From the IMG/VR virus record IMGVR_UViG_3300047462_000311: a DNA stretch of 59,143 nucleotides. One strand, written 5' to 3'. The DNA comes from a virus. This document shows, one piece after another, positions 11,677-38,945 of this stretch. The notes beneath the pieces are model-generated. The model worked only from the letters and a program-made list of their open reading frames with translations, did not search any database and was not told the DNA's origin. A program made the translations under genes and the position numbers. Positions within the stretch are counted from its first letter, which is position 1. Each line of letters starts with the position of its first letter.

Positions 11677-11709
11677 AAACCGGACCGCGCAATCCCAGCG
11701 GAGTAGTGC

Positions 11710-14947: not shown

Positions 14948-15638
14948 AGAGGTCTCGAAGAGGACGGAGCGCCGCGCGGACCAGAAAATCAACTTGCGCA
15001 TGGAATTCTTCCTTGGTTTGGATGAATTCGTTAGCGAGCAGCATTTCTGGTGGAGAAAGAAGCGCGGAACGTTTCAAACAGTCATCGGCGCAAATATGTA
15101 TGACCTTTCCATGTCGGCGGCTTCTGGAACGATACAGCCGGGCGGCGGGATCAGTGATTTCGCGCAGTTTGACGAAATAATCCTTCTAAATGCCGATGGG
15201 ATTACCAAGCAGCTTGAGATCGTTCCCATTCTCGACCCAGTGGGGCAACTGGTGGCGATCAAGAACACGGTTCAGGATGTTCCCGCAGCATTTTTCATCG
15301 ACCCCCAGATTTCTCCAACCACCGTTGTCTTTCAAGCTCCTGCCAGCGTCGCTCAAACCGTTCTTTACACTTATTGGGCCGTGCCACAAATCTCGGAGCC
15401 GGACGAGGACACCATCCCTATGGTGCCGAGTTACCTGCACTGGGGATTGGTGTACATGCTTGAGCGCCGCGTCTATGAATTTCTGTATGGCGAGGACGAT
15501 CCGCGATTCACCGTTGCGAATTCGCGCTATATGGAATTCTGCCAAAAAGCGGCAAGAATGCCGCATTGGACGGCGAAGCGCGTGCAAGAGATGCGTGCGT
15601 CGAGCCACAGCGTAAAAACAGTTCAGGCACATAATTAG
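14922..15638 (+). CDS. Putative head-tail adaptor / virion structural protein (238 aa)
   Basis: Position between the capsid module and the large tail protein. No diagnostic motif. Confidence 0.4.
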   Translation: MWTVQQIVEEVSKRTERRADQKINLRMEFFLGLDEFVSEQHFWWRKKRGTFQTVIGANMYDLSMSAASGTIQPGGGISDFAQFDEIILLNADGITKQLEIVPILDPVGQLVAIKNTVQDVPAAFFIDPQISPTTVVFQAPASVAQTVLYTYWAVPQISEPDEDTIPMVPSYLHWGLVYMLERRVYEFLYGEDDPRFTVANSRYMEFCQKAARMPHWTAKRVQEMRASSHSVKTVQAHN

Positions 15639-23400: not shown

Positions 23401-25172
23401 CGGTTCTAGATTTCCTGCAAATGCGGCGTGCCGATCGTGCATACGATTACCTGGAGGGTTTCAAGAATTCACCGGAATTCGGCGAGATCGCGCACAAGAT
23501 AGGAAGCGGAAATGCCCCGGAGGGCTGGCGTCCAACCATGCTTCCACAGTTCCATGGCTACTTGTTCGAGCCGCATACGGCGGAAGTGCTTGACTGGTTT
23601 GCAAAAAGGATGAATGGCGGTGATGCCGGGGTAATCGACCGGGCGATGCAGGGGATCAATCACTTTTTACGGACGGCGGCATTTTTCAATCCGCTCATTC
23701 ACACACCAAACATCGGGGTGCATTGGGCCGTCGAGAAAGGCGTGACCGGATTTGGGCCGAAGAACTGGGGAACCATCCTCCGCACGGGATCACGCGCCAT
23801 TGATGCTGTCATCCATCAGAATCAGGATTTTCTAGATGCGCTCGATTCCGGCGCCCCGCTGCAATCGCAGAGGCTGGATAACGACGTTGTAAATAAGCTC
23901 ATTATTCAGCGCATGGGAAAAGAATTGGAATCGAATCCTGGTTATGCCGCAAAGATTGCCGGGGCTTTGGGCTACGCAAATCCGCTAAAGCTGGTTCGGG
24001 CCATCTATGACTTTTCCAACAAGGCCACGTGGATGACGAACGACATAGCCCTGCTCCAGGCAACGTATGAGCACATGGAACGAACTGGGCAACCATTCAA
24101 AGAAGCAGTTGCGGACGTTGCCAAGCACATACCGGATTATAGGCTGCCCACCCGCATTTTTGACAGCAAAGCGCTTGGCACGCTGATGAGCAATCCCAAT
24201 CTAACCATGTTCGGAGCGTACCACTACGGTGCATTGCGCAGTTACGGAGAAATGATAAAGGAAATGGCCGCAGAAAATGTTCCGCCAGCGCAACGGCTGA
24301 AATCGCTGGATCGTATGGCCATGCTCGGACTTGTCACATTCGCAGCCTATCCGGCAATGGATCAGCTTGCAAAACTTGTAACAGGAGACAAGACAGCGCA
24401 GCTCCGCCGCGCCGGAGCCAGCACCTTCATCTACAATCTCGCACAATTGCTCAAGGGAGATAAAACACCAACGGAGGCACTTCAAGCGGTGGCAACTCCG
24501 GCGGCTGGCACCAAATCCGCGGTGGAACTGGCATTTAACAAGGATTTGCGCACCGGGCGCGATATCTATGATTCATCGGCCCCAGCGCGGACGATTGCCA
24601 AGCAAGTGGGTCGCTACGCGCTAAAGAGTGTAAACCCGGTGGGCATGGGCATGGATTTGGAATCCGGCAAAAAAACACTGAAGCAATTGGGAGCTGGCCT
24701 CTTTGGCGTCAAAACGAACGTGCAAACTCCGGCAGAAGCGCTCGCTTCACGATTGCTGGCAAAGTCCATGGGAACCGCCGCGCCAGACGAGGATACTCTG
24801 GAACGCGCCACGATGCGGCGGACCTATGAACAAAGGCTGCGCGACAAGGAGATTACTCCGGCTGACGTTGCGAAAGATCGTGCCTCGGGAAAACTAAATG
24901 CGCACGATCAGGAGATTATCTTGCGCAATGCCGCGCGGACACCCTTGCAGAATGCCATGCGCAATCTTGGCCCCGAAGAAGCATTAAAGGTTTGGAACAA
25001 GGCGACGCCAGAAGAGCAGCAGCAAATCCGCACGCTGTTTGCCGGAAAACTAAGCTCCATGGGAAAAGTGCCGCCAGAGCGCCGCGAGCAGGTGCGCCAG
25101 CAGATTCTATTGGCCCTCCATCCGCACACTCCAGCGGCCGGCGGCCTGCCTCGCGTGTTTTCAGGAATCTGA
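20406..25172 (+). CDS. Giant internal virion / DNA-ejection protein (1,588 aa)
   Basis: Single uninterrupted ORF (TTG 20406 or GTG 18 in-frame nt later at 20418). Sits between the internal proteins and the fibre genes. No enzymatic motif recognised. Confidence 0.6.
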   Translation: MATAVSDDLDQFVANYRAKGVPKSSGDDELDQFVKSYSEEKSAPPDTRSPFGTLAERSARLGEPMIPLAPPKNLFVDTTKIPRNPFTNELELAPPIATEEEKQRAGTIGPRPNTEIPMPFGAAPAQVPDITGALPRAIAAGAYPGSFAEELKRRAGVTDAELQREQAGGLRLFDPAELMTESQQHEHPIATGALQAIGGLTTPENIGITAATAGIGEAPAAVRAGLSTLFAMQMAKGAYDAIPGIRDAWNRGDYAEVKRLATLAGVNTALAGAAAGHGVNEFREAAYGEPAPLTLPPGTVSAPLKVDEALGRGARRMQEFEANNAAREGMANLANAESAIERARQERINAPVAMPRTFNPDEYPRLLPGPIQGPETNPLEREATQVLEQRKPTGPQVVDRRRVGAGENLAPESPATLRKQVDMLAEGTNKVVYFPKGTENLPAPPDNAVVTNVPGDKPGSGIYYHDPSIKSEDIYSAVDNGTYGKLLGNVQTKQEAEKGNPGVLVSRDANGTEQKASVVDLRRKAIVRLQEKELNRQFPNGQVSVETPEKVISERQKEPAQPLPAKFRTDKAANIAAAQPTKEQMIDAFRTDKGRLETERRSASPEEQSLIDDRLATINQHLEELTGQKPLQKFVDRPGTDIDKFVEQYGKPSSSEQAEKAAVSPGDYVEASNGALAGKTLEVTKAGKSGIYVREGDGPIKFVKNGEYRRLEAAKEVKDLIGAGKRYSGADPRILKNLIPEPLREKLAEENRYVALSRNVQGGMYDLESQAAADMLRAREILKNAPGSPKDLETIYHSLEDSSIKLTPEQAKIREQYVKPLMDASREAYEKITGNKVAEGDEHVHRIAAERGGILDRILGGKGKLNAGNPLSKSAPGAKRRTMMALEDENGNRRVVSIKDNHVTAWEQGRPADMGRFRTPAQKGVDEYYDEKVMSGLEKLASDLGISHERTAKKLGGEEKIPGTFVDKSGKRWNVKQATTKEIEANTNIRYYKNALASAVLDFLQMRRADRAYDYLEGFKNSPEFGEIAHKIGSGNAPEGWRPTMLPQFHGYLFEPHTAEVLDWFAKRMNGGDAGVIDRAMQGINHFLRTAAFFNPLIHTPNIGVHWAVEKGVTGFGPKNWGTILRTGSRAIDAVIHQNQDFLDALDSGAPLQSQRLDNDVVNKLIIQRMGKELESNPGYAAKIAGALGYANPLKLVRAIYDFSNKATWMTNDIALLQATYEHMERTGQPFKEAVADVAKHIPDYRLPTRIFDSKALGTLMSNPNLTMFGAYHYGALRSYGEMIKEMAAENVPPAQRLKSLDRMAMLGLVTFAAYPAMDQLAKLVTGDKTAQLRRAGASTFIYNLAQLLKGDKTPTEALQAVATPAAGTKSAVELAFNKDLRTGRDIYDSSAPARTIAKQVGRYALKSVNPVGMGMDLESGKKTLKQLGAGLFGVKTNVQTPAEALASRLLAKSMGTAAPDEDTLERATMRRTYEQRLRDKEITPADVAKDRASGKLNAHDQEIILRNAARTPLQNAMRNLGPEEALKVWNKATPEEQQQIRTLFAGKLSSMGKVPPERREQVRQQILLALHPHTPAAGGLPRVFSGI

Positions 25173-25414: not shown

Positions 25415-27043
25415 ATGAAGCGGCTTCTGCTGATTTTCATGGTATGCCTCATGGTCCCGCTTGGGCTGCGGGCGCAAGTCTCCGTAACCGGGAACCTAAA
25501 GGACGTTGGTGTCGCAAACGTTACAGGATCGAACACGTTCGTGCGATTTACGCTGACAAATTACGGGTCCAACATACCGAAGGTTGTAGGCTCCAATCTG
25601 ATTGCTGTGCCCGTAAAGGATTTCCATCCCGACATAAATGGGAACATCAGCGGAACAATCCAGCCAAATTCTTCGATTTCGCCAATCGGCACGCTATATC
25701 AAGTTTGCATTTTCTACCAGGGACAACAGTTCCGCTGCGCGACGTATTTGATCAGCGGCCCGTTTGACCTGGGTACGGCGGTGCCAATCAGTTCAACGCC
25801 AATCGTCGGACCAAACCAGCTTGTGACACAAATTTTTCTCTGCCCTCAGTTCTCTGCCTCAACGACATGGACATGCGTCCACAATTTTGGAGACTTCAAT
25901 GTCGGATGGCAGCTCTACGACCAAAACAACAACGGAATCGGATTTCCCAACACCGTTTCCGAGCCGGATGCAAACACCATTGTTTTTACATGGATTACTC
26001 CGCAGGCCGGAAGGGCGGAGATATTGCACGCTGGCGCTGTGAATATAGCGACAAATCAGCCGAACGCGGTGGTGCAAAATCCGCTGGGCAGCCAAACGGT
26101 TTGCTGCTTTCCGCTCGCTGTCACGAGCGCGTTCAATGCCACCGGAGGAGGGTCCTTTTCCGGCACATTTTCCGGGAATCCTACCTTCTCTGGCAATCCG
26201 GTATTTTCAGGAAACCCCGTATTTTCCGGCGGCGTAAAGGCTGGATTTTTTTCTACGGCAGCGGCCAATCCGGCACAAACCGGACTGTTGCGCCTGGCAG
26301 CCGCCGATTCGATTGCATTCCGCAACAACGCAAATTCCTCCGACCTCGCGCTTGGCATAGACGGCTCGAACAATCTAAGACTTGACGGTTTTCCAGCGGA
26401 TGTGGTGGCACGCCTTGTTTCGAGATCGGCAAACCCATCGCAAACAGGAAGCATCTCCCTTGCGGTCGCCGATTCAATCTCTTGGCGAAACAATGCCAAT
26501 AGCGCGGACTTGGCTCTTGGATTGAACGGCAGTGACCGTCTCGTATTCTCACTTGATCCGGTTGTCACGGATGCCTCTACTGACACGCTTACGAACAAAA
26601 CGCTAAATTCCCCGGTTGTAAGCACTCCGGTCATAAATGGTGCCAGCACTGGAACCGGGATTCAGGGAAATGCTCCTAGGCTCCTAACAGACGACGCCAC
26701 CGGATCGGCTGGGAATCCGTTATGCCGGGCCTCGGGCGGCGGATCAACCGCATGTTCGGTTACAAGTATTCCCTATCGTCGCGTCGTTTCCAGCAACAGT
26801 TGCGCGAATACTGGATCGGCTGGCGGCGCAACGCAAACCTGCACCATCACAATCTCGCCAGCCGAAGCGGATACCAGCTATCACGCAATCTGCGGCGGCG
26901 AGGGCACCGTAACCGGATATCCACTCATGCTCGGTGTAAGCAGCAAGGGAACAACCACGATTACAGTCACATATTCCGATGGAACAAACAACATGGCAAC
27001 AGCTTCGGGATGGTCCACGATTTCATGCGAAATTCTACGATGA
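25415..27043 (+). CDS. Tail-fibre-like protein with Sec-type signal peptide (542 aa)
   Basis: MKRLLLIFMVCLMVPLGLRA-QV. Beta-rich, with FSGNP(T/V) tandem heptads and repeated NANS(S/A)DLALG segments. Confidence 0.7.
   Translation: MKRLLLIFMVCLMVPLGLRAQVSVTGNLKDVGVANVTGSNTFVRFTLTNYGSNIPKVVGSNLIAVPVKDFHPDINGNISGTIQPNSSISPIGTLYQVCIFYQGQQFRCATYLISGPFDLGTAVPISSTPIVGPNQLVTQIFLCPQFSASTTWTCVHNFGDFNVGWQLYDQNNNGIGFPNTVSEPDANTIVFTWITPQAGRAEILHAGAVNIATNQPNAVVQNPLGSQTVCCFPLAVTSAFNATGGGSFSGTFSGNPTFSGNPVFSGNPVFSGGVKAGFFSTAAANPAQTGLLRLAAADSIAFRNNANSSDLALGIDGSNNLRLDGFPADVVARLVSRSANPSQTGSISLAVADSISWRNNANSADLALGLNGSDRLVFSLDPVVTDASTDTLTNKTLNSPVVSTPVINGASTGTGIQGNAPRLLTDDATGSAGNPLCRASGGGSTACSVTSIPYRRVVSSNSCANTGSAGGATQTCTITISPAEADTSYHAICGGEGTVTGYPLMLGVSSKGTTTITVTYSDGTNNMATASGWSTISCEILR
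26156..26233 (+). repeat. In-frame tandem repeat encoding FSGT-FSGNPT-FSGNPV-FSGNPV-FSGG
   Basis: Read directly: ttt tcc ggN aaY ccN NNN units repeated head to tail. Confidence 0.8.
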
Positions 27044-30000
27044 AAAGACTGGCGCAAGCATGCTTCATTCTGATGGCATGTGCATTCGTGCGCGAACCCG
27101 CTCTCGCGCAGATGCAGACGGACAGTATCGCGGCACGCGGAAACGTAACCGCCAAAGTTCTGGCAAACTCGCAAACAGTAACGATTGCCGGAACGACGCC
27201 GAACGTTTCAGGCGGCAACGTGTTTCTTACCAACAACAGCGGCCCCACAACGATAACCAACTTCACCGGCGGGATCGACAGCCAGCAGATCGTCGTGGTA
27301 TGCGGAGATACAAATACCACCATTCAGAACAACGCCAATATCGCACTTACTGGCGGAACAAACTATGCGTGTGCCCTGAATCAGGGGATTCAGCTCGCCT
27401 TCGTTGGCGGAAAGTGGATTCAGACCGGCACGGCGACTGGAGGCGGCGGAGGCGGTTCCAGTCCTGCTGGAAATAACGGAGACGTGCAGATACGGAATGG
27501 CACATCCCTTTCCGCGGCTCATATCAATGACAATGGAGCCACCATTGGCATCTCCGAAGACACCAATTGGAAGGGGCCAAATCCCTCGGTAAATTTGTTC
27601 CAATATGGCGCTTATCTCGGCTCAACAACACCGCCAACCATTTCTTGCACAACGGCGGCCTCATCGGCGAATTTAACCTGCTCCGGCGGGACCGGTGATT
27701 TTGCGGTCGGCCACGGAGTGGCCGTGCCAATGGCTGGACCGGCCCCAGTCGTGACCACGCCAAATGCTCCCGTCTCCATCGTGTCGCTTTCAATAAGCAG
27801 TAATGTGGCAACGATAGCAATGGCCTCGACAGCCGGATTCAGCAACGGGTCATCCGTCGTCGTTTCGGGTGCCAGCGACTCGACGCTCAACGGCACCTAC
27901 ACTGGCGTAAACACGGTAAATGCAGGCACGTTCACCGCGTCGATTACGCACGCAAATTGCTCCCCATGCACCATTGGAGGGAGCGCTACGGTGGTCGCAA
28001 GCACACCAGCCCTCGTTACTCCTGTTGGACAGGTTGGCGGCTCGACAACCTACAATTACAAAATCGTAGCTCGGGACTTTAACGAAGGACTGTCCGCCGC
28101 CAGCACCGCAATTACTACGACTTCGGGATGGGCGACGCTTGGCGTTCAAACTTACTCGATTGCCAATAATGGCTGTTCATGGAACAGCACAAGCGGGCTG
28201 GAGACCTTTACCACGACCGCGGCTCACAACATCCCCAATCAGCCGGACATTGAGATTTTCGTATCGATTAACGGTGTCGTGAATTTGACCGGCGCATTCG
28301 TGACGGCGGGAGCGCCAACTGCAACGACTGTTACCGTCGCGATGCAGGGAATCGCCACACAGACGCAGACATGCCCATCGGGCGGGACGTTAAAAGTCGT
28401 CGCGCGAAATTTCGTGCAATGGACTCCCCAGCCATATCAGGCTCTTGGTTGGCTTGTTTACCGGTCTGTAGGCGCAGGAGCATATTCTCTTGTAGCCGTG
28501 CTCAACGGCCAAGACTCGAGCTTCTATGACTGGGGATATGGAAGCCCGGTAAAATCCGGCGCCCCGGCGGTCTACATCCCATCGACGCCGCCGAGTTCGC
28601 CGCAAAATGGCACGCTGGCCGCGCTCATCACGGCGATCAACGGAACGACCGTTACACTGTCCAGTGCGGCTTCCGCCAGCCTTACAACTACGGTTCTGCA
28701 TGACAATTCTCCGAACGTGATGGCGGCTTGCAACTCGCTTGGAACTGGAGGGCTTGATATCTACTATCCCGGCGCGAACTCCTTCATGGTGTTCAATTCG
28801 CCGCTAAAACTTTATGGCTGTTCCTCGGGACAGATGCGCCATATCCTGGGCACTCAAATCGTAGCCAACGAACCGATTATCCCGAAGAGTTTTACTTTCT
28901 TCGAGGGGCGTGCGCTCGGCAACAACAGCCAGATTCCGCCGTTCATGACCAGGCCAGTTACCAATATGTTCTGCGGCGTGATGCCATGTTTCCTGCTGAC
29001 TTTCCAGCCGACTGTCGGTGGCCCCATCAGCTCGATAACCCTGAAAGACATAGCCATACAGTCAAGCCAGCCCTACGTGAGCGGAATCTACATGGATCAG
29101 GATGCCACCGGGGCGGGTATAACCTCAATTACTCTTGACAGTGTGTATGTATCGGCGAACAAGGGAGGCATTGCACTCCGCTTTGGTGGCGGTTTTTACT
29201 TCAACATCCTCGGAGGATTTTACGGCATCACGGGGGCCAACGGCGGAGACTGGGGCTATCCTCCGGCAATTTGGGAGACCGTAAACCAGGGACTAGGACA
29301 GAACACGCAGGGGCTGTCTTATCTATCGCAGATGAAAAATGCGACGATAGAAGGCGGCGAGTTTTACTTTGACACAAACAGAGAACAGTTTTTTGGAAAT
29401 TTCGGGACAGGGCCAGGCCAGTGGGAATTCAGCAACATCCTTTCGGAAAGCAATCAGTATCCGATACTGCATTTCAACACGTCGGCGTCAACATTTTTTC
29501 TTAACGGCATCAGCGTGAAAGACCTTTCCTACGCGGATCCGCTGGGCAACATCGCCACGCCGCTAATTGAGCTTGGTGATTCCCGCTTCAACTTCATCCG
29601 CTTTTCCACAAAGGGAGGCTTCAGCGTTTGCGGCAATGGCTCCCAGCCTATTTTTGCGTCGATTACTACCAGCCCGGCAGTGGATATTGATGGAGGCACA
29701 AACTGCGGAACTATTGGGCTGTTTAACTACGCTGTACGCTCAAATGGATCATTTGCTATCGTTGGAAAATCAACCTTCGAGTCGTACGGAGTATCGACAA
29801 TTGGCTATGCCATGGGTGCTCCAACGATTTCCAGCGTGAATACTGTATCCGGCAGTCTTGCGGCTGGCACCTACTACTACTCCATTCGCGGGGTGGACAG
29901 AAATGGAAATGTTACAACGAGCTCGCCTGTCGTCGGTCCCTTCACATCGAATGGAAGCCAAGCCCTGACACTGAATTTCAGCCTGGTGCCTGGACAGGCT

Positions 30001-30762
30001 TTCACGATGCTGTGCCGAAGTAATAGCGGTCCAGTGATTAATAGCTGCGCTGGATTCGGACCCTCACAATTCATTTCTGGAACGAGCTTTACGGACAACA
30101 CGCCACAATTCAACTACTTTAACTCCAACACAGAACCAGCGCTGAATGCCAACGGAGCTTCCTTCGCATCAGCACAAGCCGTTTCTTTGGGAGCCTCTGG
30201 CCTTTCCAGTTATAACTTGGCACTTACTGGCGGAGGGTTTTCCAGTATTCAGTCTGGCACTTTCACGGCGAATCGCACCATAACTTGGCCGGACGCATCT
30301 GGAACACCGGCTCTGCTCGGCGTCGCGCAAACCTTCACACAGCCGCAAACATTCACATCTCTCAGCGGCACAGCCTCAAGCTTAACGATCAATTCGCTTA
30401 CGCAGGGAAGCGAAACACAAACCGCCCTTACCCACCCGCCATTTACCGTGCTTATCCCCGGAGCACTCACCGCAACATCAACAGCGGCCACATGGACTCT
30501 CGACAAAGCGATAACAGTAACGCGAGTGCAAATCCAAACAAGGGTAGCCCCATCGGGATGCAGCCAGAATGCGGTCATCCGCTTGACCGATGGGTCGGCC
30601 AATCAGGATGTGGCCATTTCTGGATCATCCAATGATTCTGGCGGCATCGCTCAAAATTATGTTTCTGGAGCTGCGCTTACGATCAGCGTGCAAACACCAG
30701 CAAGCGGATGCGCTACATCTCCAGGCGATGCGCAGGTAGTGGTCCAGTATCGGAACCAATGA
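27040..30762 (+). CDS. Tailspike/depolymerase-like protein with signal peptide and beta-helix-like core (1,240 aa)
   Basis: ATGA-coupled start. MKRLAQACFILMACAFVREPALA-QM. Pectate-lyase-3-like entry (VNLFQYGAYLG..GDFAVGHGVAV) and a long Gly/Asn/Thr-rich repetitive core. Confidence 0.65.
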   Translation: MKRLAQACFILMACAFVREPALAQMQTDSIAARGNVTAKVLANSQTVTIAGTTPNVSGGNVFLTNNSGPTTITNFTGGIDSQQIVVVCGDTNTTIQNNANIALTGGTNYACALNQGIQLAFVGGKWIQTGTATGGGGGGSSPAGNNGDVQIRNGTSLSAAHINDNGATIGISEDTNWKGPNPSVNLFQYGAYLGSTTPPTISCTTAASSANLTCSGGTGDFAVGHGVAVPMAGPAPVVTTPNAPVSIVSLSISSNVATIAMASTAGFSNGSSVVVSGASDSTLNGTYTGVNTVNAGTFTASITHANCSPCTIGGSATVVASTPALVTPVGQVGGSTTYNYKIVARDFNEGLSAASTAITTTSGWATLGVQTYSIANNGCSWNSTSGLETFTTTAAHNIPNQPDIEIFVSINGVVNLTGAFVTAGAPTATTVTVAMQGIATQTQTCPSGGTLKVVARNFVQWTPQPYQALGWLVYRSVGAGAYSLVAVLNGQDSSFYDWGYGSPVKSGAPAVYIPSTPPSSPQNGTLAALITAINGTTVTLSSAASASLTTTVLHDNSPNVMAACNSLGTGGLDIYYPGANSFMVFNSPLKLYGCSSGQMRHILGTQIVANEPIIPKSFTFFEGRALGNNSQIPPFMTRPVTNMFCGVMPCFLLTFQPTVGGPISSITLKDIAIQSSQPYVSGIYMDQDATGAGITSITLDSVYVSANKGGIALRFGGGFYFNILGGFYGITGANGGDWGYPPAIWETVNQGLGQNTQGLSYLSQMKNATIEGGEFYFDTNREQFFGNFGTGPGQWEFSNILSESNQYPILHFNTSASTFFLNGISVKDLSYADPLGNIATPLIELGDSRFNFIRFSTKGGFSVCGNGSQPIFASITTSPAVDIDGGTNCGTIGLFNYAVRSNGSFAIVGKSTFESYGVSTIGYAMGAPTISSVNTVSGSLAAGTYYYSIRGVDRNGNVTTSSPVVGPFTSNGSQALTLNFSLVPGQAFTMLCRSNSGPVINSCAGFGPSQFISGTSFTDNTPQFNYFNSNTEPALNANGASFASAQAVSLGASGLSSYNLALTGGGFSSIQSGTFTANRTITWPDASGTPALLGVAQTFTQPQTFTSLSGTASSLTINSLTQGSETQTALTHPPFTVLIPGALTATSTAATWTLDKAITVTRVQIQTRVAPSGCSQNAVIRLTDGSANQDVAISGSSNDSGGIAQNYVSGAALTISVQTPASGCATSPGDAQVVVQYRNQ

Positions 30763-30763
30763 C

Positions 30764-32665
30764 ATGAGAAAACTACTTATACTTTCATTGTTTCTTTTTT
30801 TCACCACAAGCCTCGCGGCGCAGAACAACCCGCTGGCGTCCCGGCCCTACGGCCAAGAGACCGTTGCTTTCAGCGCGACTCCGGCATTCAACTATGCGAC
30901 GAGTTACGGAAAGAAAATCGTTCTAACTGGCAATGTAACCAGTTCCACGGCCACGGGCATGGAACCTGGCATGTATCCCACCTTGGAGGTATGCCAAGAC
31001 GCGACCGGGGGCCGCACATTCGTTCCGCCAACTGGTTTCAACGGCTGGGTAGCGATTCCATCATCCGCGAATGCTTGCATTGTCGAGTTCCTTTACTACG
31101 ACGGCGTACAAGCCACTGTAGTAACAACGGCGACTGGAGGCGGAGGCGGCTCCGGCACAATCAATTCCGGCACAAGCGGAAAAATCGCTATCTACTCCGG
31201 TTCCACCACCGTCTCAAGCGATGCCAAGCTCGATGACGGCCTCACTACGGCAAATACCTTGACATATACCGATACCGGAGGAATGGCGGCAAAATCCTTC
31301 AATGCCACGGGCACAGGCGCCGCCGTAGTCAATGGCACAAATGGGGCATGCGGCGCTGGCGTTGCCGGACATTCCCTGTTATGCCTTGGAGACTCGCTCG
31401 CGCTGACAGCGAAGATCAGCCTGAATGGCGGCGCGTTTCTTTCCATACCGCAATGGTCGAATGATTCCCCGACGCCATTTGGGCCGCTTTGCGCCGATGG
31501 AACATTTCCACGCCTCATAACTGTTCCCATTGGATCCGCCGGGCAGCCCCTTCTTTCCACCGGATCCAGTTCATGTTTCGGATACGGCGCTCTTGACCTT
31601 TCAAGTTCCTCGAATGTTACCAATCGCCTTCCCAAGGCAAACATGGCCCTGACAACCGTGCATACGGATCAGACCAACACATTTACAGCAGCGGGAACCA
31701 TCGACCTAAGCGCAGCAACTTCATCGGCAGCGTTTCGTATACCGAATATCGCCGGAGCTTCCACAACTACGAATGGAACGCTGGCCTACAACACCACAAC
31801 GAACAATTTTGTCGGCGGCATGAATTCAGGAAATGCCATCATTCCCGTAACGACGATTACTCCGACAAACAACGACTGCGTAAAATGGGTGGTGACCAGC
31901 GGGAATTTCCAGCTTGGTGATGTCGGATGCGGAGGAACGGTTTCGCTCTCCAGTCTCACGGCAGCGACAACGGCAAATACCATTGCCAATGGAAACAACG
32001 GCCAAACATGGCAATGGTCCCTTACATCTACTGGAGGCGTGGGATTCAAAGTCACTGAATCCTCGGCAAGCACCGCCACGGGAACACCCTATCTGTTTCA
32101 GGTGTCCGCGCTATCGGGATCGACGGCAAATCCAGCCAGATTTGATTTCAACGGAAACGGCGTAGTAGTCAATACATCCGGGCTGCTGACTTCGATTGGC
32201 ACGGGGGCTATTGATGCAACAAAGCTTTCCGGCCAGATAAGCACGTCCAACCTGCCATCCTCCAGCAAAATGCGCACATGCGCGATTATCGTGGGTTCCG
32301 ATGGCGGCTCGGCGCTCGCGAATACGGACATTGCTCCTCTCGGAAGGCAATGTTTTGTTCCTTACGCGGCAACCGTAGTCGAAATCGAAGTGGCGGCGGA
32401 TGGCGGAACGCCGAATGTAATCGTGGCGAAAAATCACGCTGGAACACTGACCGATTTGCTCAGCAGCGCACTGGCGACAGCCGCGTCTGGCGGAATCGCG
32501 TGCTCGAACAGCGGCGGCACGGCTGGGCTTGACGGAACGACGACGTGCTCGGCGACGCTGCAAAATACATCGCTGGCCGCCGGTGATTACATCGAAACGC
32601 ACTCTGCTACCGCTGGCGGAACCGCGAAACGCATGTCCATCTTCATCACGTTCACGGTGAACTGA
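30764..32665 (+). CDS. Tail-fibre-like protein with signal peptide (633 aa)
   Basis: MRKLLILSLFLFFTTSLAA-QN. N-terminal domain, then a TATGGGGGSG linker as in the upstream gene. Thr/Ser/Gly-rich. Confidence 0.65.
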   Translation: MRKLLILSLFLFFTTSLAAQNNPLASRPYGQETVAFSATPAFNYATSYGKKIVLTGNVTSSTATGMEPGMYPTLEVCQDATGGRTFVPPTGFNGWVAIPSSANACIVEFLYYDGVQATVVTTATGGGGGSGTINSGTSGKIAIYSGSTTVSSDAKLDDGLTTANTLTYTDTGGMAAKSFNATGTGAAVVNGTNGACGAGVAGHSLLCLGDSLALTAKISLNGGAFLSIPQWSNDSPTPFGPLCADGTFPRLITVPIGSAGQPLLSTGSSSCFGYGALDLSSSSNVTNRLPKANMALTTVHTDQTNTFTAAGTIDLSAATSSAAFRIPNIAGASTTTNGTLAYNTTTNNFVGGMNSGNAIIPVTTITPTNNDCVKWVVTSGNFQLGDVGCGGTVSLSSLTAATTANTIANGNNGQTWQWSLTSTGGVGFKVTESSASTATGTPYLFQVSALSGSTANPARFDFNGNGVVVNTSGLLTSIGTGAIDATKLSGQISTSNLPSSSKMRTCAIIVGSDGGSALANTDIAPLGRQCFVPYAATVVEIEVAADGGTPNVIVAKNHAGTLTDLLSSALATAASGGIACSNSGGTAGLDGTTTCSATLQNTSLAAGDYIETHSATAGGTAKRMSIFITFTVN

Positions 32666-34123
32666 ATGATGCGAGTCGCAATTCTGTTTTTCGCGTGCGC
32701 CATTTTTCTAGGGATTGCTGGCGGCCCCGCTTCGTCGCAAACATTGCCGGGTGCGCCAACCGCGCTGTGCAACAACAGCACGACATCATCTTCGAGCACT
32801 CTTAGCTGCACGATGAATCACGCATCCGTGACGAACGAGAAAATAATCGTTTCCTGCGGCGCATTCGGCTATTCCACCGCTCCAACGATAACTGTAACGG
32901 ACAACGCTTCGGGAGGCTCGAACACCTACACGCAAGACGCGCAAGCGACGAATACAGGCGGCCCTGAGAGGGTGGCGACTTTCAGCGCGGACGTCGTGCG
33001 CGGAGGGGGAAGCACGCTCACCGTTACCTGTCATTACTCGCCAGCCTCGATTGACGTGGACATGCTCAGTGCGGAATTTGCGAATCTCGCCACGGGGGCG
33101 AAGGATTCGAGCACAACAGCAATTCCAACTGGACTTGCTCCGAATACGCTGAACCAGATTGCCACCAACACTTCGACGGCAAGGAACACACTGGCATATT
33201 CCGCCTGTGACCCGCACAAAGGGCTTTCTCCGCAAGCGGGTCCCGGCTGGACCGCATTGCAACAAACTTCCGTTGACGAGGTGACTGACCAATATCGCGT
33301 CTATCTCGAAAGCGGCTCTCAGGTTGTCGCGTTTCTCGAAGGTAACAACACGACAAATGACGACTTGGCTTGCACTTTTGCGGCCTATGCGCTTGCCGAC
33401 CAAACTGCCGTTGCTGGCGTGGCTGTTGGCAACAGTTCGGCGAGTCTTCAATTCGGCGCCGGCAGCGGTTCTACTACCTGGAGTTGGACGGATACGGTCT
33501 CCTCAAGCGGCTCCAACACTCTCGCCATCGTGGATTTGTTCATAAACGGCACGACGCCGCCATCGGCAGCACCGACGTATGGCGGAACGTCCATGACTCT
33601 CATCACTAACATTACGGACCAGACGAATCTCGAATCGCATTACGTCTACAAACTCGTGAATCCGCCAGCGGGCGCGAACACGGTAAGCGTCAGTTTTGGC
33701 AGCGCAAAAACAGGGGCCGGAATATCCACGAATTTCTTCAACGTGAATCAGTCCTCGCCGACTTCGGCGGCGCAGACGGATAACGGCAGCACGCTGAACC
33801 CGGCGAATCTGACAGTTTCCTCGGCGGCGAATCATCTGGTTTACACGAGCGTAGGCATTGCGGATAAATCCGCTTGCCCCGCATCTGGAGTTGTCGTGGA
33901 CACGAACAATCTCAATGTCGGCCAGATTCCAACTGCGGTGATTGGGCATGTAGCGGGAGCTTCCAGCGTGACCGCTGGGTGGAATCTGCTGACTACCAAC
34001 GGGATTCCGTCCTGCCCCGGAACAAACGGAACTGGAATCGAGCGCACTCACATTGCATTTGATATCGCTTCCGCCAGCGGAGTCATCCCAAGTCCCGTGC
34101 GCCACCGCGCGATTGTGTACTGA
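32666..34123 (+). CDS. Fibre/adhesin-like protein with signal peptide (485 aa)
   Basis: MMRVAILFFACAIFLGIAGGPASS-QT. Start abuts the previous stop. Beta-rich. Confidence 0.6.
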   Translation: MMRVAILFFACAIFLGIAGGPASSQTLPGAPTALCNNSTTSSSSTLSCTMNHASVTNEKIIVSCGAFGYSTAPTITVTDNASGGSNTYTQDAQATNTGGPERVATFSADVVRGGGSTLTVTCHYSPASIDVDMLSAEFANLATGAKDSSTTAIPTGLAPNTLNQIATNTSTARNTLAYSACDPHKGLSPQAGPGWTALQQTSVDEVTDQYRVYLESGSQVVAFLEGNNTTNDDLACTFAAYALADQTAVAGVAVGNSSASLQFGAGSGSTTWSWTDTVSSSGSNTLAIVDLFINGTTPPSAAPTYGGTSMTLITNITDQTNLESHYVYKLVNPPAGANTVSVSFGSAKTGAGISTNFFNVNQSSPTSAAQTDNGSTLNPANLTVSSAANHLVYTSVGIADKSACPASGVVVDTNNLNVGQIPTAVIGHVAGASSVTAGWNLLTTNGIPSCPGTNGTGIERTHIAFDIASASGVIPSPVRHRAIVY

Positions 34124-34137
34124 TGCATGGAGGTCTG

Positions 34138-37100
34138 ATGCGAAAAGCCCTGGCATTGCTGCTCTTCATATTAGTTTCTGCTTTGCCGCTGAACGCGCAA
34201 GCGCAAGTGACAGGAACCGGCACAATTTCCGGCGTTGGCCAAATTACCGTAGTGCCCCTTCCAACGGCGACCGCATCTCCTACAAGCCTAGGATTCGGAA
34301 ACGTGACACAGGGACAATCCAGTGCCTCACAGGCTGTAACGCTGCAAAATACGGGAACGACGCAGCTTACCATTGTAAGCGCGGTCACCACGTTGCCATA
34401 TAGCGCAACAACCACTTGCGGAGCAACACTGGCGGCGGGAAACTCCTGCGTCTACAATGTCGTTTTTTCTCCCACCGGTACCGGCTCTTTCCCCGGCACA
34501 CTTACAATCAATGACAACTCGACCACCACTCCGCACGTTATCTCGCTTGCCGGAAGCGGCGTGCCACCCGCCCAGCCAGGAGCTTCCCTCACTCCCGCTT
34601 CATTCAATTTTGGAAATCAAACAACCGGAACAACAAGCGCCTCGCAGCCGTTTACATTGCAAAATACGGGTGGCGCGGCCCTGTCCATTTCCAGCATTAC
34701 CGCATCAGCTTCGTTCAGCCAGACGAATAATTGCCCGGCAAGTCTGGGAGCCGGTGCAAGCTGCCTGATCAATGTGACATTCTCGCCATCGACCACTGGC
34801 CTGATTCAAGGGTCTTTGAGCGTTGTTGACAACGCGGCGGGAAGTCCGCAAAGCGCGAGCTTGAGCGGAACGGGAATCCCTCCATCATCCGGCGGCGGGG
34901 TGCCAGCAACGGCGGGATGGTTCTCGATCCCGAATACAGCATGGGCATCACTCTGTCCCAATGCTACAGGTGCGCGGCCTGATGTACAGGGAAATTCCGG
35001 CTGTGGCGCGGTAGTTGACGCCTGGGCAGGCGGCTACCTTGACACGAAGAGGCATCGTCTGTGCTTCACTGGCGGCGGCCACCACGATTACTACGGCAAT
35101 GAAATTTACTGCCTGAATCTGGACACGCTGACAATCGCTACTCAGAACGTGGCTTCAAATGCCTCAACGCTGAATACGAATACCAACTCCTACGACACCA
35201 TGCCGGATGGAACGCCGGGTGCCCGCCACACCTACGGCGGATTGGCCTACTATCCAGACATTGATTCCGCCATTTTCATGGGTGGCGGTCCGCCCAACCC
35301 TGGCGGCACAGTGTCCACCACATGGGCAATTGATCAGTCAAAGCTGAATCCCGCAACGACGATGGGTGTTCAGCCGAGCGGGGCCGCAAAAAACATGAAT
35401 CCTACGGTGAGCGGCGGCACGCTTGACGGACAATTCGGCAATTGTTCGGTATATGACCCCAACACGCAGAAAATGCTGCTCTGGGAGCCCTGGCAATCAC
35501 AGCCCGGCAATCTGTGGAACTACGACCAGTCCACGAATACATATACGCATCTTGCGACATTCGGAAGCGGCTCTGTTTTCATGGATGGCAACCAGAGTTG
35601 CGCTCTCGACCCCGTGCATGAGGTGCTCTATGCCATAGGTAACGGAAAGCTGCTGCACGTCAGCGTGGCGAGCGGCTCCAGCTTCACCGTAACGGATTCA
35701 TTTTCGCGCAGCGGATGCAATACAGCGCAGACCAGCTCCGGGTATCCCGGAGTTTCTTTTGACCAGCGCGATGGCGGCATCGTTGTTTGGAATGGCGGCA
35801 ATAGCATAACGGTGTATAGTCCGGCGTCGGACACTTGCTCCACTGAAACATATTCTGGCGGACCAACCACGAAGGGTAGCGCGGGAACTTTCGGACGCTG
35901 GCAATATGACAATGTTCTCGGCGTGCATGTGGTATGCAACGAGAACAGCGAGAACTGTTTCACGCTTCGCCGCAACGTGGACGTGGCCGCGGTGAATGGC
36001 TTCTCCAATAGGGTGGCGGGCATCAACACGCCCGGAGGATCAGCCTCTATTGTTAGCTGGCAAAACTTTGATAGCTATCCTGTAACGAACAAGCAGCAGT
36101 ATTTCCAGACCAACATCGCTTCGCAATTGACAACCGACTGGACGCAGCCGAATACGGATGGAGGAGCTCTCCATTTCGCTTTCAAAAACGGCGATTTTCA
36201 AGCGGGTCCGGGATGGTTCAACTACAACTTCTGCGCCGCGCTGAATTGCCTCTACGGACAAGGCTCCGAGTTTTACGTGCAATACAAGGAGCGTATAAGC
36301 GCCGCCGCCCTCTCCCGCTCAAGCTGGGATAGCGGATTCACCGACTGGAAGATGGCGATTCTGCGGGAGGGCGACAGCAACACGCAGCAGGCCACGAATT
36401 GTTCCAGTACGCCGACTGATATCGTGCTCGATTCCGATGCCGGACACATCGCCAGCGCGGTTATGCCGTGGGTGTACGTGAACTGCGGCAACGCTGGGAC
36501 GCTCAATTTCCTCAACTCGCCATTTCAGCCAATCCAGTACCCGCTAGCGAGCGGTGCTACAGACTTGCTTGACCAGCCTGCCTCTGGCGGTCCGCACTAT
36601 GGCAGTGGCGTGAACGGCTCAACAGTTCCGGTTACAGACCCGACTGCCTGGAATTTCACGGCCAATGAATGGTTCACAATTCAGGCCCATGTCAAGATTG
36701 GCACGTGGGATACGGCCTCATCCGTAATCGAAATGTGGGCGTGCCACCAAGCCCAGCCTTGCCGGCTGGTGACCAACGCGAGTGATGCCGCGCTGAATGA
36801 CCTTGGAGGAAGCGTAACCGACAAGTTCGGCGCAATCGTGCTCTTGCCATACGCGACGGGCGCGACGTGGCTCACGAACGTGGATTACTGGTACGACGAT
36901 CTAATCGTATCCAACCGGCGCATCCCTGATCCTGATGTTTCTACGCCGAATGCTCCTGACTCACTCTCGCTATCGGCCATCTCCAGTTCGAGCATAACGG
37001 TCAACTGGAGAGTCAACTCGAACAATGGCACAGCCCAAGACGATACGGGGTTTTTGGTGGAGCGATGCACGGGAACCGTGGCCGTGTGCATGCCCAATCC

Positions 37101-37287
37101 GCAGTCTGGCTTCACGCAGATTGGCACGACCGCCGCACACGCTTCCAGTTTTGTTGACAACACAGTGAGCGCGGGGCACACCTACACGTATCGCGTTCGC
37201 GCGAAAAACGCGAATGGAAATTCCGCATACACCGTCGCCATCTGCTTCAATGGCGGAACGACGTGCGGAGGAACGGCACAAATCTAA
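34138..37287 (+). CDS. Multidomain depolymerase-like protein with signal peptide, two choice-of-anchor-D-like Ig domains, a propeller-like region, a lectin/lyase-like domain and a C-terminal FN3 domain
   Basis: GGAGG 4 nt before ATG 34138. MRKALALLLFILVSALPLNA-QA. Two copies of F(G)NxTxGxxSAxQxxTLQNTG..L.I. FN3 segment ITVNWRV..YTYRVRAKNANGNS. Confidence 0.65.
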   Translation: MRKALALLLFILVSALPLNAQAQVTGTGTISGVGQITVVPLPTATASPTSLGFGNVTQGQSSASQAVTLQNTGTTQLTIVSAVTTLPYSATTTCGATLAAGNSCVYNVVFSPTGTGSFPGTLTINDNSTTTPHVISLAGSGVPPAQPGASLTPASFNFGNQTTGTTSASQPFTLQNTGGAALSISSITASASFSQTNNCPASLGAGASCLINVTFSPSTTGLIQGSLSVVDNAAGSPQSASLSGTGIPPSSGGGVPATAGWFSIPNTAWASLCPNATGARPDVQGNSGCGAVVDAWAGGYLDTKRHRLCFTGGGHHDYYGNEIYCLNLDTLTIATQNVASNASTLNTNTNSYDTMPDGTPGARHTYGGLAYYPDIDSAIFMGGGPPNPGGTVSTTWAIDQSKLNPATTMGVQPSGAAKNMNPTVSGGTLDGQFGNCSVYDPNTQKMLLWEPWQSQPGNLWNYDQSTNTYTHLATFGSGSVFMDGNQSCALDPVHEVLYAIGNGKLLHVSVASGSSFTVTDSFSRSGCNTAQTSSGYPGVSFDQRDGGIVVWNGGNSITVYSPASDTCSTETYSGGPTTKGSAGTFGRWQYDNVLGVHVVCNENSENCFTLRRNVDVAAVNGFSNRVAGINTPGGSASIVSWQNFDSYPVTNKQQYFQTNIASQLTTDWTQPNTDGGALHFAFKNGDFQAGPGWFNYNFCAALNCLYGQGSEFYVQYKERISAAALSRSSWDSGFTDWKMAILREGDSNTQQATNCSSTPTDIVLDSDAGHIASAVMPWVYVNCGNAGTLNFLNSPFQPIQYPLASGATDLLDQPASGGPHYGSGVNGSTVPVTDPTAWNFTANEWFTIQAHVKIGTWDTASSVIEMWACHQAQPCRLVTNASDAALNDLGGSVTDKFGAIVLLPYATGATWLTNVDYWYDDLIVSNRRIPDPDVSTPNAPDSLSLSAISSSSITVNWRVNSNNGTAQDDTGFLVERCTGTVAVCMPNPQSGFTQIGTTAAHASSFVDNTVSAGHTYTYRVRAKNANGNSAYTVAICFNGGTTCGGTAQI

Positions 37288-37301
37288 GAGGAGGAACACG
37301 C

Positions 37302-37919
37302 ATGAGGAAACACATTCTTTCCCTGCTTTTTTGCCTGGCGGGAACTGCGGCTTTCGCACAAAGTCCGCAGAACTCCAACTCGATGTCATTCACCGTGGTA
37401 GCCTTGCCGCCCGGACCAACCATTACTTCGCTCGGCGGCCTCTCTCCCACTGGAAAGATTTACGCTGGCTCTGTCATGCAAATCATCGGCAGCAATTTCA
37501 CGAGCTCATGTGCCGCCCAGGTTGATGGCACAACGCAGCCAGCAAGCTCTTTCACATACAAGTCCAGCACGGAGATTGACTACACCATTCCCGCGAGTCT
37601 TTCCGCGGCAGCCCACACGATGGTGATTTCCTGCCCGCTTCCGGCACTGACCATGAATACGCCGGTGACACTCCCAAACGCCATAGCGAGGCAGAGCTAC
37701 TCTGCCGACCTGGCATCCCTTGCGAAATTGACCGGAGGAATCCCGCCATACAAGTTCAGCCTTACGGGTGGCTCTCTTCCAACGGGGCTCGCTTTATCGT
37801 CCAACGGCATTGTCACTGGTACGCCTTCTGGTGCTGGCTCTTTTAGCTTTGGATTCACCGTTACCGATTCCTCACAGTTATCTTCCCTGCGCCGTTTTCG
37901 CATTTTTCTTCCCGTTTGA
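37302..37919 (+). CDS. Secreted IPT/TIG plus putative-Ig (He_PIG-like) domain protein (205 aa)
   Basis: AGGAGGA upstream. MRKHILSLLFCLAGTAAFA-QS. GGIPPYKFSLTGGSLPTGLALSSNGIVTGTP is the cadherin-like putative Ig motif. Confidence 0.6.
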   Translation: MRKHILSLLFCLAGTAAFAQSPQNSNSMSFTVVALPPGPTITSLGGLSPTGKIYAGSVMQIIGSNFTSSCAAQVDGTTQPASSFTYKSSTEIDYTIPASLSAAAHTMVISCPLPALTMNTPVTLPNAIARQSYSADLASLAKLTGGIPPYKFSLTGGSLPTGLALSSNGIVTGTPSGAGSFSFGFTVTDSSQLSSLRRFRIFLPV

Positions 37920-38205: not shown

Positions 38206-38493
38206 ATGTTCAATTTCCCGCCTATAACGCTGGGAGCGCTTGTGCTCCTGGCGACGCAGTTCTTTCTCTGTCTCCGCTGGATGTATCGCAGCTACAGAAA
38301 TGCCGAGATCAACCGGCGCTTCGTCAAAGACGTTGCCACAAACCACCTGCCCCATCTGTACCAGGCGATGAAGCAGATCGCAAGAGCCAGTGGCATAGAG
38401 CTGGAAGACCCTCCTCCGGTTCAGTGGATCGATTTCGACAACGGCAATGGCCATCACAAGAAATTCTCTTCCCTATGGCACCGGATGACCTGA
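38206..38493 (+). CDS. Holin-like membrane protein (95 aa)
   Basis: One N-terminal TM helix (ITLGALVLLATQFFLCL) and a charged C-terminus. Overlaps the endolysin start. Confidence 0.4.
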   Translation: MFNFPPITLGALVLLATQFFLCLRWMYRSYRNAEINRRFVKDVATNHLPHLYQAMKQIARASGIELEDPPPVQWIDFDNGNGHHKKFSSLWHRMT

Positions 38494-38945
38494 TCGCGCT
38501 TGCCAAGAGCCTTGCACCGCCGCTGGACCCGGCACTTGTGTGCGCGGTGATCGAGCAGGAGAGCGGATGGAATCAATGGCTCAATCGCTACGAACCGGAT
38601 TTCAGCGCCAACCCCCGTTACAAACCCACCATACTCATCCAATCACAAGACTTCGTGAAGCGAGCCACTTTTGAAATTTCCCTATCAACAGAAATCGTGA
38701 ACCGAGCCATGTCCTGGGGGCTGATGCAGGTTCTTGGACAGACTGCGCGAGAGAATGGATTTCTTCTGCCGATGGCCAGCCTTTGTGACGCCGAGTTTGG
38801 CATTCGCATCGGCTGCAAGATATTGCTGCGCAAAATCACCCTGAGCAACGGCGACAAAGTGGCCGGGCTACAAGCATGGAACGGAGGAGCAAACCCAAAT
38901 TACGCGGCAGAAGTAATGGCAAGAGAAGCGAGATACCAACAGTAA
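38475..38945 (+). CDS. Endolysin, lytic transglycosylase (SLT domain)
   Basis: Catalytic-Glu motif VIEQESGWN, plus SWGLMQV and AWNGG. Confidence 0.8.
   Translation: MAPDDLIALAKSLAPPLDPALVCAVIEQESGWNQWLNRYEPDFSANPRYKPTILIQSQDFVKRATFEISLSTEIVNRAMSWGLMQVLGQTARENGFLLPMASLCDAEFGIRIGCKILLRKITLSNGDKVAGLQAWNGGANPNYAAEVMAREARYQQ

Follow-up and report, generated by a model that had tools for sequence, protein, structure and literature searches.

Tail fibers and spikes are textbook cytoplasmic assemblies, and annotation pipelines take the lack of a signal peptide as a mark of a phage structural protein. What should be made of an apparent whole receptor-binding module, together with hundreds of homologous protein clusters, that carries export signals and disulfide signatures? 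The question is raised by positions 25415 to 37919 of the IMG/VR virus record IMGVR_UViG_3300047462_000311, a stretch of 59,143 nucleotides (nt) referred to here as the window. Six tightly packed genes, g1 to g6, sit there after the genes for a tail adaptor, a nozzle and a 1588-amino-acid (aa) ejection protein and before a holin-like gene and an SLT-domain endolysin gene. An earlier note, made from the sequence alone, had placed six open reading frames (ORFs) in this fiber slot and read a Sec-type leader at the start of each; their sizes and positions proved correct. We report that the leaders are real, conserved as leaders and confined to the fiber slot, and that the proteins that carry them have disulfide signatures and are tailspike- or fiber-like. 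We also set out a model in which g1 to g6 would encode the receptor-binding apparatus of the phage, exported, oxidized in the periplasm and joined to the tail at lysis; judged from sequence, this full model stands about an even chance of being right.

Sec-type leaders in the fiber slot

All six genes lie on the plus strand. Their predicted leaders, with an arrow marking the putative signal peptidase I (SPase I) site, are MKRLLLIFMVCLMVPLGLRA↓Q at 25415-25474 in g1 (25415..27043, 542 aa), MKRLAQACFILMACAFVREPALA↓Q at 27040-27108 in g2 (27040..30762, 1240 aa), MRKLLILSLFLFFTTSLAA↓Q at 30764-30820 in g3 (30764..32665, 633 aa), MMRVAILFFACAIFLGIAGGPASS↓Q at 32666-32737 in g4 (32666..34123, 485 aa), MRKALALLLFILVSALPLNA↓Q at 34138-34197 in g5 (34138..37287, 1049 aa, or 1054 aa from an upstream ATG at 34123) and MRKHILSLLFCLAGTAAFA↓Q at 37302-37358 in g6 (37302..37919, 205 aa). 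The n-regions of g1 to g6 carry the charges KR, KR, RK, R, RK and RK(H), and the uncharged hydrophobic runs measure 15, 11, 16, 21, 15 and 15 residues. These runs fall below membrane-span length in five of the six proteins, the exception being g4, whose run takes in the Gly/Pro/Ser c-region. The putative sites (LRA↓Q, ALA↓Q, LAA↓Q, ASS↓Q, LNA↓Q and AFA↓Q) were scored as having small residues at -3 and -1, and Gln stands at +1 in all six; leucine at -3 of an SPase I site is acceptable, if less common. The leaders contain no twin-arginine motif, no lipobox ([LVI][ASTVI][GAS]C) and, on reading, no G↓F-type prepilin motif, and the mature parts contain no membrane-span-like segment and no PEP-CTERM-like tail.

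Leaders were called with a crude rule-based test of our own (n/h/c pattern). Together with motif reading it upholds, for all six proteins, the Sec-type leader and the cleavage-like site before Gln that had been seen earlier. The test was positive for 6/6 of g1 to g6 versus about 7 of the 55 other ORFs in the window (Fisher p = 3e-5), and for just 1 of 22 ordinary phage fiber proteins. These controls were the IMG/VR fibers that have g1's distal TLTNKT module, and the 21 leaderless ones leave a single exception, in the siphovirus L009 described below. The statement of the earlier note that tailed-phage fibers normally lack signal peptides agrees with this control and with two published studies, in which the phage proteins examined had none (one dealt with diversity-generating retroelement target proteins, of which many have a C-type lectin fold, the other with gp38; PMC6199706, PMC12946066). 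Our literature search, incomplete in coverage, found no report of signal peptides on tailed-phage fibers. Paralogy was rejected as the origin of the shared leaders: BLAST shows no similarity among the six proteins, so the leaders were not derived from duplication.

Could the leaders be an artifact, with the true starts lying downstream and the hydrophobic N termini untranslated or the product of chance? We consider this extremely improbable. The g5 start at 34138 has GGAGG directly 5' of it and the g6 start at 37302 has AGGAGG, both Shine-Dalgarno (SD) motifs; the starts of g2 to g4 lie 0-4 nt from the preceding stop codon, an arrangement of translational coupling; and a purine-rich tract lies upstream of the g1 start. 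Downstream starts had been proposed as a check, and no SD-preceded in-frame start follows the leader in any of the six genes. Past the leader, no Met occurs before residue 505 in g1 (none lies between residues 13 and 505) or before residue 355 in g5. For g1 to g3, the 542-, 1240- and 633-aa products were also called, independently, on a near-identical ENA contig. What speaks for misplaced starts is that the same call begins g4 at Met50 (436 aa), which makes the g4 leader the least certain, and that two g1 homologs, P0002 and P0269, were called without leaders. Neither survives as a leaderless homolog: an in-frame GTG start restores the leader of P0002, and P0269 looks miscalled too by comparison with L059.

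The frequency of leaders among relatives also argues against an artifact. A phmmer search with mature g1 residues 21-230 against 1.84 billion representative proteins gave a g1 anchor-domain family of 498 clusters at E <= 1e-3, and in the best 162 of the 498 clusters a leader precedes the anchor domain in 146, with a commonest length of 19-21 residues. The 16 exceptions are seven N-terminal fragments, the two miscalled starts, one recombination scar, two proteins missed by the rule or truncated, and four that are truly leaderless. The scar, P0032, was set aside as a plain leaderless homolog; in its locus (L062, 9807-12130) a 66-aa ORF consisting of a leader and the first 45 anchor-domain residues stands immediately before a complete copy without a leader, and resolvase genes and an AbiU2-like gene make up the surroundings. 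It shows how leaders get lost or gained.

Synteny gives the same picture. Our syntenic set comprised seven phages: the window, the ENA contig L052, and five IMG/VR phages (L057 to L061) found with the g1 anchor alignment. Across this set, leaders are present in 23/23 genes of the slot between the last internal protein and the endolysin versus 10/112 other ORFs (p = 1.8e-18), so that the survey of related phages suggested in the earlier note turned up the same leaders. In L052, the nozzle gene is followed by those for small proteins and a 2099-aa giant protein and next by five leader-bearing genes (635, 1148, 897, 498 and more than 778 aa), four of which match g1, g2, g3 and g5 in N-terminal sequence or domain content. 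L057 to L061 have the order adaptor, nozzle, internal proteins, two or three large leader-bearing genes and SLT endolysin. Counterparts of g1 and g2 occur in all seven phages, and the mature N terminus of g3 is conserved in its L052 ortholog; g4 has no counterpart in L052 and no detectable homolog among the fetched loci, and g6 has no counterpart in any fetched locus. Compared by eye between the window and L052, the leaders diverge more than the mature N termini, and the n/h/c design is kept.

Related phages were also sought with the conserved C-terminal part of the giant protein. Among the more distant, AT-richer relatives so found, L031, L037, L039 and L041 have leaders on downstream genes and L035, L046 and L048 have none. 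The closest giant-protein relatives (L023, L024, L026 and L043) were rejected for the fiber comparison, since terminase or other genes lie directly 3' of their giant gene and they are uninformative on fibers.

The leader feature also reaches beyond the window's lineage. A g2-type family of about 1450 aa is leader-bearing as well. L009 is a siphovirus with a lambda-J-like tail protein and five leader-bearing fiber-like proteins, all with even numbers of Cys. P0035 and P0040 have gained leaders in an otherwise leaderless fiber family (N-terminal motif '..NG..Y.IP...E.GWG'; most relatives leaderless); their loci, L053 to L056, belong to low-GC (36-40%) podoviruses in which the gene sits between the capsid and adaptor genes, with a weak SU10-type adaptor match in L055 and L056 (P0035) and none recorded in L053 and L054 (P0040). 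As a separate observation on L009, its fiber genes with the same leader and N-domain lie on both strands at 3072-12802 (450 aa on the minus strand, 892 and 679 aa on the plus strand) and its J-like tail gene is split across strands, which suggests an invertible or cassette-type fiber region.

Disulfide signatures and probable receptor-binding modules

That the leaders act as functional Sec signals and that the proteins mature in an oxidizing compartment are well supported by sequence features, among them the distribution of Cys. In 33 aligned g1-family N-domains, Cys occurs solely in the pairs 98/108, 44/69, 143/154, 167/201 and 140/204, whose partners are co-present or co-absent with no exception. 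The pairs are mutually exclusive, in that the four sequences without 98/108 have 44/69, and of the other three pairs every second domain contains one and no more. Such pairwise covariation in an alignment is the pattern expected of structural disulfides.

Mature g1 to g6 contain 12, 18, 12, 8, 24 and 2 Cys, all even numbers, making up 1.1-2.4% of residues. Even counts were found in 18/19 complete fiber-slot proteins of the seven phages (one-sided p = 4e-5; Cys 1.1-3.2%), in 95/120 g1-family representatives of at least 400 aa (p = 8e-11; median Cys 1.7%) and in 46/57 g2-family members (p = 3e-6). Portal, scaffold, capsid, adaptor, nozzle and internal proteins are of mixed parity with 0-0.7% Cys, and the leaderless window proteins tested have even Cys in 11/21 cases, with 0-4.0% Cys. 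Patterns such as those of the fiber-slot proteins would not be expected of proteins that fold in the reducing cytoplasm.

The truly leaderless homologs give a mixed result on the Cys pairs: P0344 and P0346 are without them, and P0321 and P0343 keep one. Two of these proteins, P0321 and P0344, adjoin adaptor and nozzle genes (L067 and L068), and one of the two has a clear SD motif and an upstream stop. Their starts, MATLSGN... and MATTVTVN..., align to QVSVTGN... of g1, exactly its predicted mature end.

These observations bear on the first of three options offered in the earlier note, that the leaders are uncleaved virion anchors or assembly tags. In a broader form, the leaders would not serve export; they would be kept as hydrophobic tags or anchors, at the tail or the inner membrane face, or be cut by a cytoplasmic protease during assembly. 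Cytoplasmic assembly is the rule for tailed phages, and the AlphaFold model of g1 shows a leader helix with fair confidence; signal-like N termini on capsid proteins of Porphyromonas gingivalis phages have moreover been attributed to prohead-protease cleavage (PMC10367356). We nonetheless find this option improbable. Leader sequences vary widely across the six proteins and their homologs and the Sec design alone is kept, which is unexpected for a docking helix, and the AXA-like sites are conserved together with the +1 Gln. In five of the six proteins the hydrophobic run falls short of a membrane span, the leaderless homologs begin where the mature proteins are predicted to begin, and covarying Cys pairs with a bias to even counts are hard to explain in a reducing cytoplasm.

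What kind of proteins do the leaders precede? In the g1 protein, the N-terminal anchor is made up of two Ig-like domains (residues 22-125 and 136-208), and a fiber shaft that includes the TDTLTNKT module and a C-terminal tip domain follow. Its AlphaFold2 model places the two Ig-like beta-sandwich domains immediately after the leader helix, with a predicted local distance difference test score (pLDDT) above 90. Searched against BFVD, these N-domains gave 42 matches at E <= 1e-3, to N-terminal parts of predicted phage fiber, pectate-lyase and collagen-like tail proteins; against PDB the matches were weak. Homologs of g1 keep the approximately 230 N-terminal residues and continue with unrelated distal parts, among them a Pfam beta-helix, and the TLTNKT module is common to g1 and the 22 IMG/VR fiber genes used as controls.

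In the g2 protein, a clade-specific N-module gives way at about residue 224 to a parallel beta-helix core that is tailspike-like, and the C-terminal domain is conserved. The model of the core (residues 224-1240) has a pLDDT of 73 and a predicted template-modeling score of 0.68, and its best Foldseek matches in PDB are CBA120 TSP2, Klebsiella phage Depo32, WceF, Fri1 gp49 and the Det7 tailspike (E = 3.6e-4 to 1e-2); a faint Phage_depo_C match is on record as well. Core and C-terminal domain recur in the family of about 1450 aa behind another N-module, which by reading is a leader followed by a carboxypeptidase-regulatory-like domain, and in prophages L064 and L065 (contigs of 0.6-0.9 Mb) such a gene lies between genes for a 240-aa adaptor-like and a 982-aa nozzle-like protein. 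An N-module that follows tail type and a distal part that can be exchanged conform to the logic of particle-anchored spikes.

The other proteins are less telling. The g5 protein has two choice-of-anchor D/ASH Ig-like domains (E = 1.3e-38), a large central part and a C-terminal fn3-like domain, and g6 has a TIG/choice-of-anchor Z domain and a He_PIG Ig domain. Of the domains named in the earlier note, choice-of-anchor D in g5, He_PIG in g6 and, by model and Foldseek, the beta-helix in g2 were thus recovered; the fn3 and TIG matches were sub-threshold. Searches of g1 to g4 against Pfam, PHROG, NCBIfam and PDB sequences found nothing beyond one PHROG of unassigned function, g2 and g5 had no match among PDB sequences, and g3 and g4 showed no fold or sequence match to known fibers or spikes. 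In their position, their conserved N-module with a variable distal part and their similarities, the proteins answer to the description of tail fibers; in carrying leaders, all six depart from it. No other ORF of more than 400 aa in the complete genome is fiber-like, in agreement with the earlier claim that no other fiber candidate of comparable size exists. Homology, synteny and elimination support the view that at least g1 and g2 encode virion spikes or fibers, and we propose that g3 to g6 encode accessory or branching binding proteins.

A proposed route through the envelope

The third option of the earlier note, an envelope-associated assembly step, is what results when "exported" is combined with "virion protein," since spikes and particles would then meet only after the inner membrane opens. 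Actual export, cleavage, presence on the virion, and the time and place of docking are inferred from sequence, and the route proposed here is conditional on them. Each protein would be made as a precursor with a Sec/SPase I signal peptide and would cross the inner membrane in an unfolded state; the host would be a diderm, probably a member of the Acidobacteriota. The leader would be cleaved to leave Gln as the new N terminus, which may cyclize to pyroglutamate, and folding, oligomerization and disulfide formation would take place in the periplasm, while DNA-filled, fiberless particles are assembled in the cytoplasm. Spikes would meet particles once the holin opens the inner membrane, and the conserved N-terminal anchor modules would dock on the adaptor-nozzle complex no later than the failure of the outer membrane. 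Proteins in the periplasm may also remove receptor polysaccharide from the dying cell. With several phages, spikes can be added to fiberless particles in vitro, and holins can make large lesions; docking after the inner membrane has opened is physically plausible.

Stated more broadly, a large uncultured phage group, with at least one lambda-J-type siphovirus besides the SU10-adaptor-type podoviruses of Acidobacteriota, would build its receptor-binding proteins outside the cytoplasm, as Sec-exported, signal-peptidase-processed and periplasm-disulfide-bonded proteins that are added at the holin breach. We put this joint claim forward tentatively, as somewhat less probable than its opposite.

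Several points weigh against assembly of this kind. To our knowledge, no tailed phage adds fibers after export. Docking as proposed would have little time, and the dilution that comes with lysis would hinder it. The Cys pair retained by leaderless P0321 is not strictly export-dependent, even Cys counts could arise by oxidation after release and not in the periplasm, and Cys parity is mixed in the most distant relatives, L031, L037 and L039 (a crude cutoff, not used). The choice-of-anchor domains of g5 and g6 are typical of secreted bacterial surface proteins and g4 is without homologs among the fetched loci, so that some of the six may be non-virion cargo. A g1-like gene (760 aa, with a leader) and a truncated g2-like gene (129 aa) occur in L051 (10001-12691) among bacterial-looking genes, with peptidase M1, PAP2 and response regulators as neighbors, the peptidase M1 leader itself ending ...CSA↓Q; we read the pair as a prophage remnant, but it could instead represent a domesticated secreted protein.

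Some of these points would equally suit proteins that are exported and never join the virion. The second option of the earlier note, exported enzymes or adhesins such as free depolymerases or lysogenic-conversion proteins, is of this kind. The six proteins would be depolymerases, adhesins or receptor-destroying enzymes in free form, either set loose in the periplasm or medium at a late stage of infection or produced by the lysogen; they would loosen host polysaccharide, keep progeny off debris or exclude other phages, and adsorption would fall to the nozzle or an unrecognized small protein. The leaders and Cys patterns would look the same, the domains of g5 and g6, the isolation of g4 and the L051 context would fit, the +1 Gln Sec proteins of P. 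gingivalis phages have been read as host-modifying cargo (PMC10367356), and WceF is an exported tailspike-like bacterial enzyme. On balance we regard this alternative, the main rival of the full model, as unlikely, though well short of far-fetched. It leaves seven phages without any receptor-binding protein; conserved N-modules with swapped distal parts in g1 and g2 are the pattern of particle-anchored spikes; and homologs lie between or beside adaptor and nozzle genes in L064, L065, L067 and L068. The six genes are also translationally coupled in a late structural block in which no promoter or terminator stands out, an uninformative scan of the block having given fewer matches than shuffled sequence and none above background. 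Of the second option, then, export is favored by the conserved leaders, cleavable geometry and signs of disulfides, and the free-enzyme and lysogenic-conversion examples fit g1 and g2 less well because of their anchor modules, swapped distal parts and adaptor-nozzle neighbors and because they are the sole receptor-binding candidates in seven phages.

How does the proposed periplasmic assembly of virion spikes compare with known systems? In fold and gene logic the proteins are ordinary tailspikes, and it is the leader and the Cys pattern that set them apart. Canonical tailspikes have no signal peptide, and fold and trimerize in the cytoplasm. With the leaderless tailspikes and depolymerases (CBA120 TSP2 and TSP4, Depo32, Fri1 gp49, Det7 and Sf6) g1 to g6 share the beta-helix core of g2, a position after the ejection genes, a conserved N-terminal anchor with exchangeable distal parts and, as in CBA120, several spikes per phage; they differ in their conserved Sec leaders, Cys-rich sequences with even counts and covarying Cys pairs.

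Exported relatives of the fold exist in bacteria. Pantoea stewartii WceF and Erwinia AmsF are exported trimeric beta-helix enzymes that modify polysaccharide, and WceF, among the best structural matches of g2 (E = 1.2e-3), shows by analogy that a tailspike fold can work in the envelope. WceF has a Tat (twin-arginine translocation) signal and is hence exported folded (PMC7949094). It is chromosomal, belongs to an exopolysaccharide operon and lacks a virion anchor, whereas g1 to g6 combine Sec-type leaders with phage late genes and anchor modules. The "Q-rule" proteins of P. gingivalis phages (proposed Nixviridae) are also phage Sec/SPase I substrates with +1 Gln, adapted to host secretion (PMC10367356, PMC5837995); there, five genes of unassigned function were read as host-modifying cargo (PMC10367356). 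Those phages infect Bacteroidota, while the window has leaders on a whole receptor-binding module, SD motifs and an inferred acidobacterial host. The +1 Gln of that rule is found in 6/6 proteins of the window, and a Bacteroidota host with glutaminyl cyclase does not agree with its Acidobacteriota links and SD use.

Other phages place proteins in the envelope by the same route. Lambda Lom, T5 Llp and Cor of phi80 and N15 are Sec-dependent proteins encoded beside fiber genes, and some of them mask the receptor and in this way protect progeny or lysogens. Each is a single small protein, either of the outer membrane or a lipoprotein, and the fibers encoded next to it are leaderless; here it is the large modular spikes that carry leaders. 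Signal-peptide and signal-anchor-release endolysins are tailed-phage late proteins placed in the periplasm via host Sec before lysis, but they are lysis enzymes and not structural, and the endolysin of the window is leaderless. The nearest functional analog, in an unrelated virus type, is g3p of the filamentous phages (Inoviridae), a virion receptor-binding protein with a Sec signal peptide and periplasmic disulfides that is joined to the particle at the envelope. Inoviridae are extruded without lysis and all their coat proteins are membrane-inserted, in contrast to the window with its terminase, HK97-type capsid protein, portal, adaptor and holin-endolysin cassette.

If the proteins are on the virion, there is either an unrecognized assembly step in the envelope or a class of phages that are released fiberless and armed outside the cell, and either outcome changes how morphogenesis, lysis timing and host range connect. 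The proposed model, if true, would add a final envelope stage to tailed-phage morphogenesis, tie infectivity to lysis and make oxidized, protease-hardened spikes usable. In viromics, such proteins would be discarded as "host" or "moron" genes on account of their signal peptides, and recombinant depolymerase production would need an oxidizing compartment. The question is directly testable on any inducible prophage of the same type, and it opens a way into the phages of Acidobacteria, which are almost unknown; in soil, this phylum is a dominant one.

The phage, its host and the surrounding genes

The first and last 127 nt of the window (1-127 and 59017-59143) are identical, so the assembly is circular and complete at 59,016 bp. 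Its products include the large terminase, a probable portal, the phrog_1328 capsid protein, the SU10-type adaptor of the tail (PF24175), a nozzle candidate of 640 aa, several small internal proteins and the 1588-aa giant protein; besides the SLT endolysin it also encodes a tyrosine integrase, a replication initiator and a DnaB helicase, a gene set that indicates a temperate podovirus with T7-like gene order. No close cultured phage was found: tblastn with the capsid protein gave only distant matches of 21-27% identity, and a g1 search of 50,697 phage records gave no match.

The genes that frame the fiber slot are likewise on the plus strand. The adaptor (14922..15638) has no leader and one Cys; the putative nozzle or tail tubular protein (15641..17563), assigned by synteny, has no leader and two Cys; and the giant internal or ejection protein (20406..25172) has no Cys. 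After the slot come the holin-like protein (38206..38493, 95 aa), named from its position and hydrophobicity with a single N-terminal transmembrane segment, and the SLT-domain endolysin (38475..38945), which starts MAPDDL.... A 176-aa lipoprotein with lipobox VYG↓C is encoded at 51804..52334 and is homologous (E = 9e-10) to the lipoprotein directly 3' of the endolysin in L058, which makes it a spanin-like candidate and suggests a diderm host. A 66-aa membrane protein precedes it (51602-52334 for both), 13 kb from the window's lysis genes. The SLT endolysin, the holin-like gene and the conserved lipoprotein all fit a diderm host.

That host is probably a member of the Acidobacteriota, as far as sequence links tell. 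In the host flank of prophage L043, IlvD is 89-91% identical to proteins of metagenome-assembled genomes (MAGs) named Ca. Sulfotelmatobacter, Ca. Acidoferrum, Ca. Acidiferrum and "Acidobacteria bacterium," with one top match labeled Dormibacteraeota, and the named g2-family members come from Acidobacteriota MAGs. Scans of GTDB genomes for prophages with the giant-protein C terminus and the g1 anchor alignment gave no match. A Bacteroidota host, suggested by the +1 Gln, was rejected in view of the Acidobacteria links and of SD motif use, which argues against that phylum. In L064, a DsbA/DsbC-family thioredoxin-fold gene at 24186-24338, owned by host or phage, lies directly beside the Acidobacteria prophage with its leader-bearing 1445-aa spike.

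Two further small leader-bearing proteins are encoded in the portal-to-scaffold interval of the window, at 9213-9713 (166 aa) and 9737-10231 (164 aa, with a strong SD motif). The C-terminal 85 aa of the second share homology (E = 2e-5) with the tip domain of P0004, a g1-family fiber. The genome thus has eight leader-bearing proteins, and at least one of the extra two has a fiber-related domain. The interval (6168-10231) also encodes a glycosyltransferase (PF13524), a radical SAM enzyme, a 136-aa ORF and a methyltransferase, possibly a protein-modification cluster. Just upstream of the adaptor, a 314-aa protein (14003-14947; phrog_1574, function unassigned) has no Pfam match; its N terminus resembles family-2 glycosyltransferases by eye, and a homolog stands at the equivalent place in L061.

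The giant gene and g1 are separated by a 240-nt gap, where the minus strand has a 64-aa hydrophobic ORF (25161-25355) that resembles a two-span membrane protein, and L052 has a small minus-strand membrane ORF just 5' of its giant gene. A third copy of the end repeat, 184 nt long and 97-99% identical, occurs at 54409-54592. The repeat copies flank, as direct repeats, a 4.6-kb segment with minus-strand genes and reversed GC skew, which may represent an island, inserted or excisable, or else a repeat of the assembly. The window also encodes a tRNA-Trp (CCA) at 465-539 and a tRNA-Met (CAT) at 10313-10387, the latter within the structural block just 5' of the scaffold gene.

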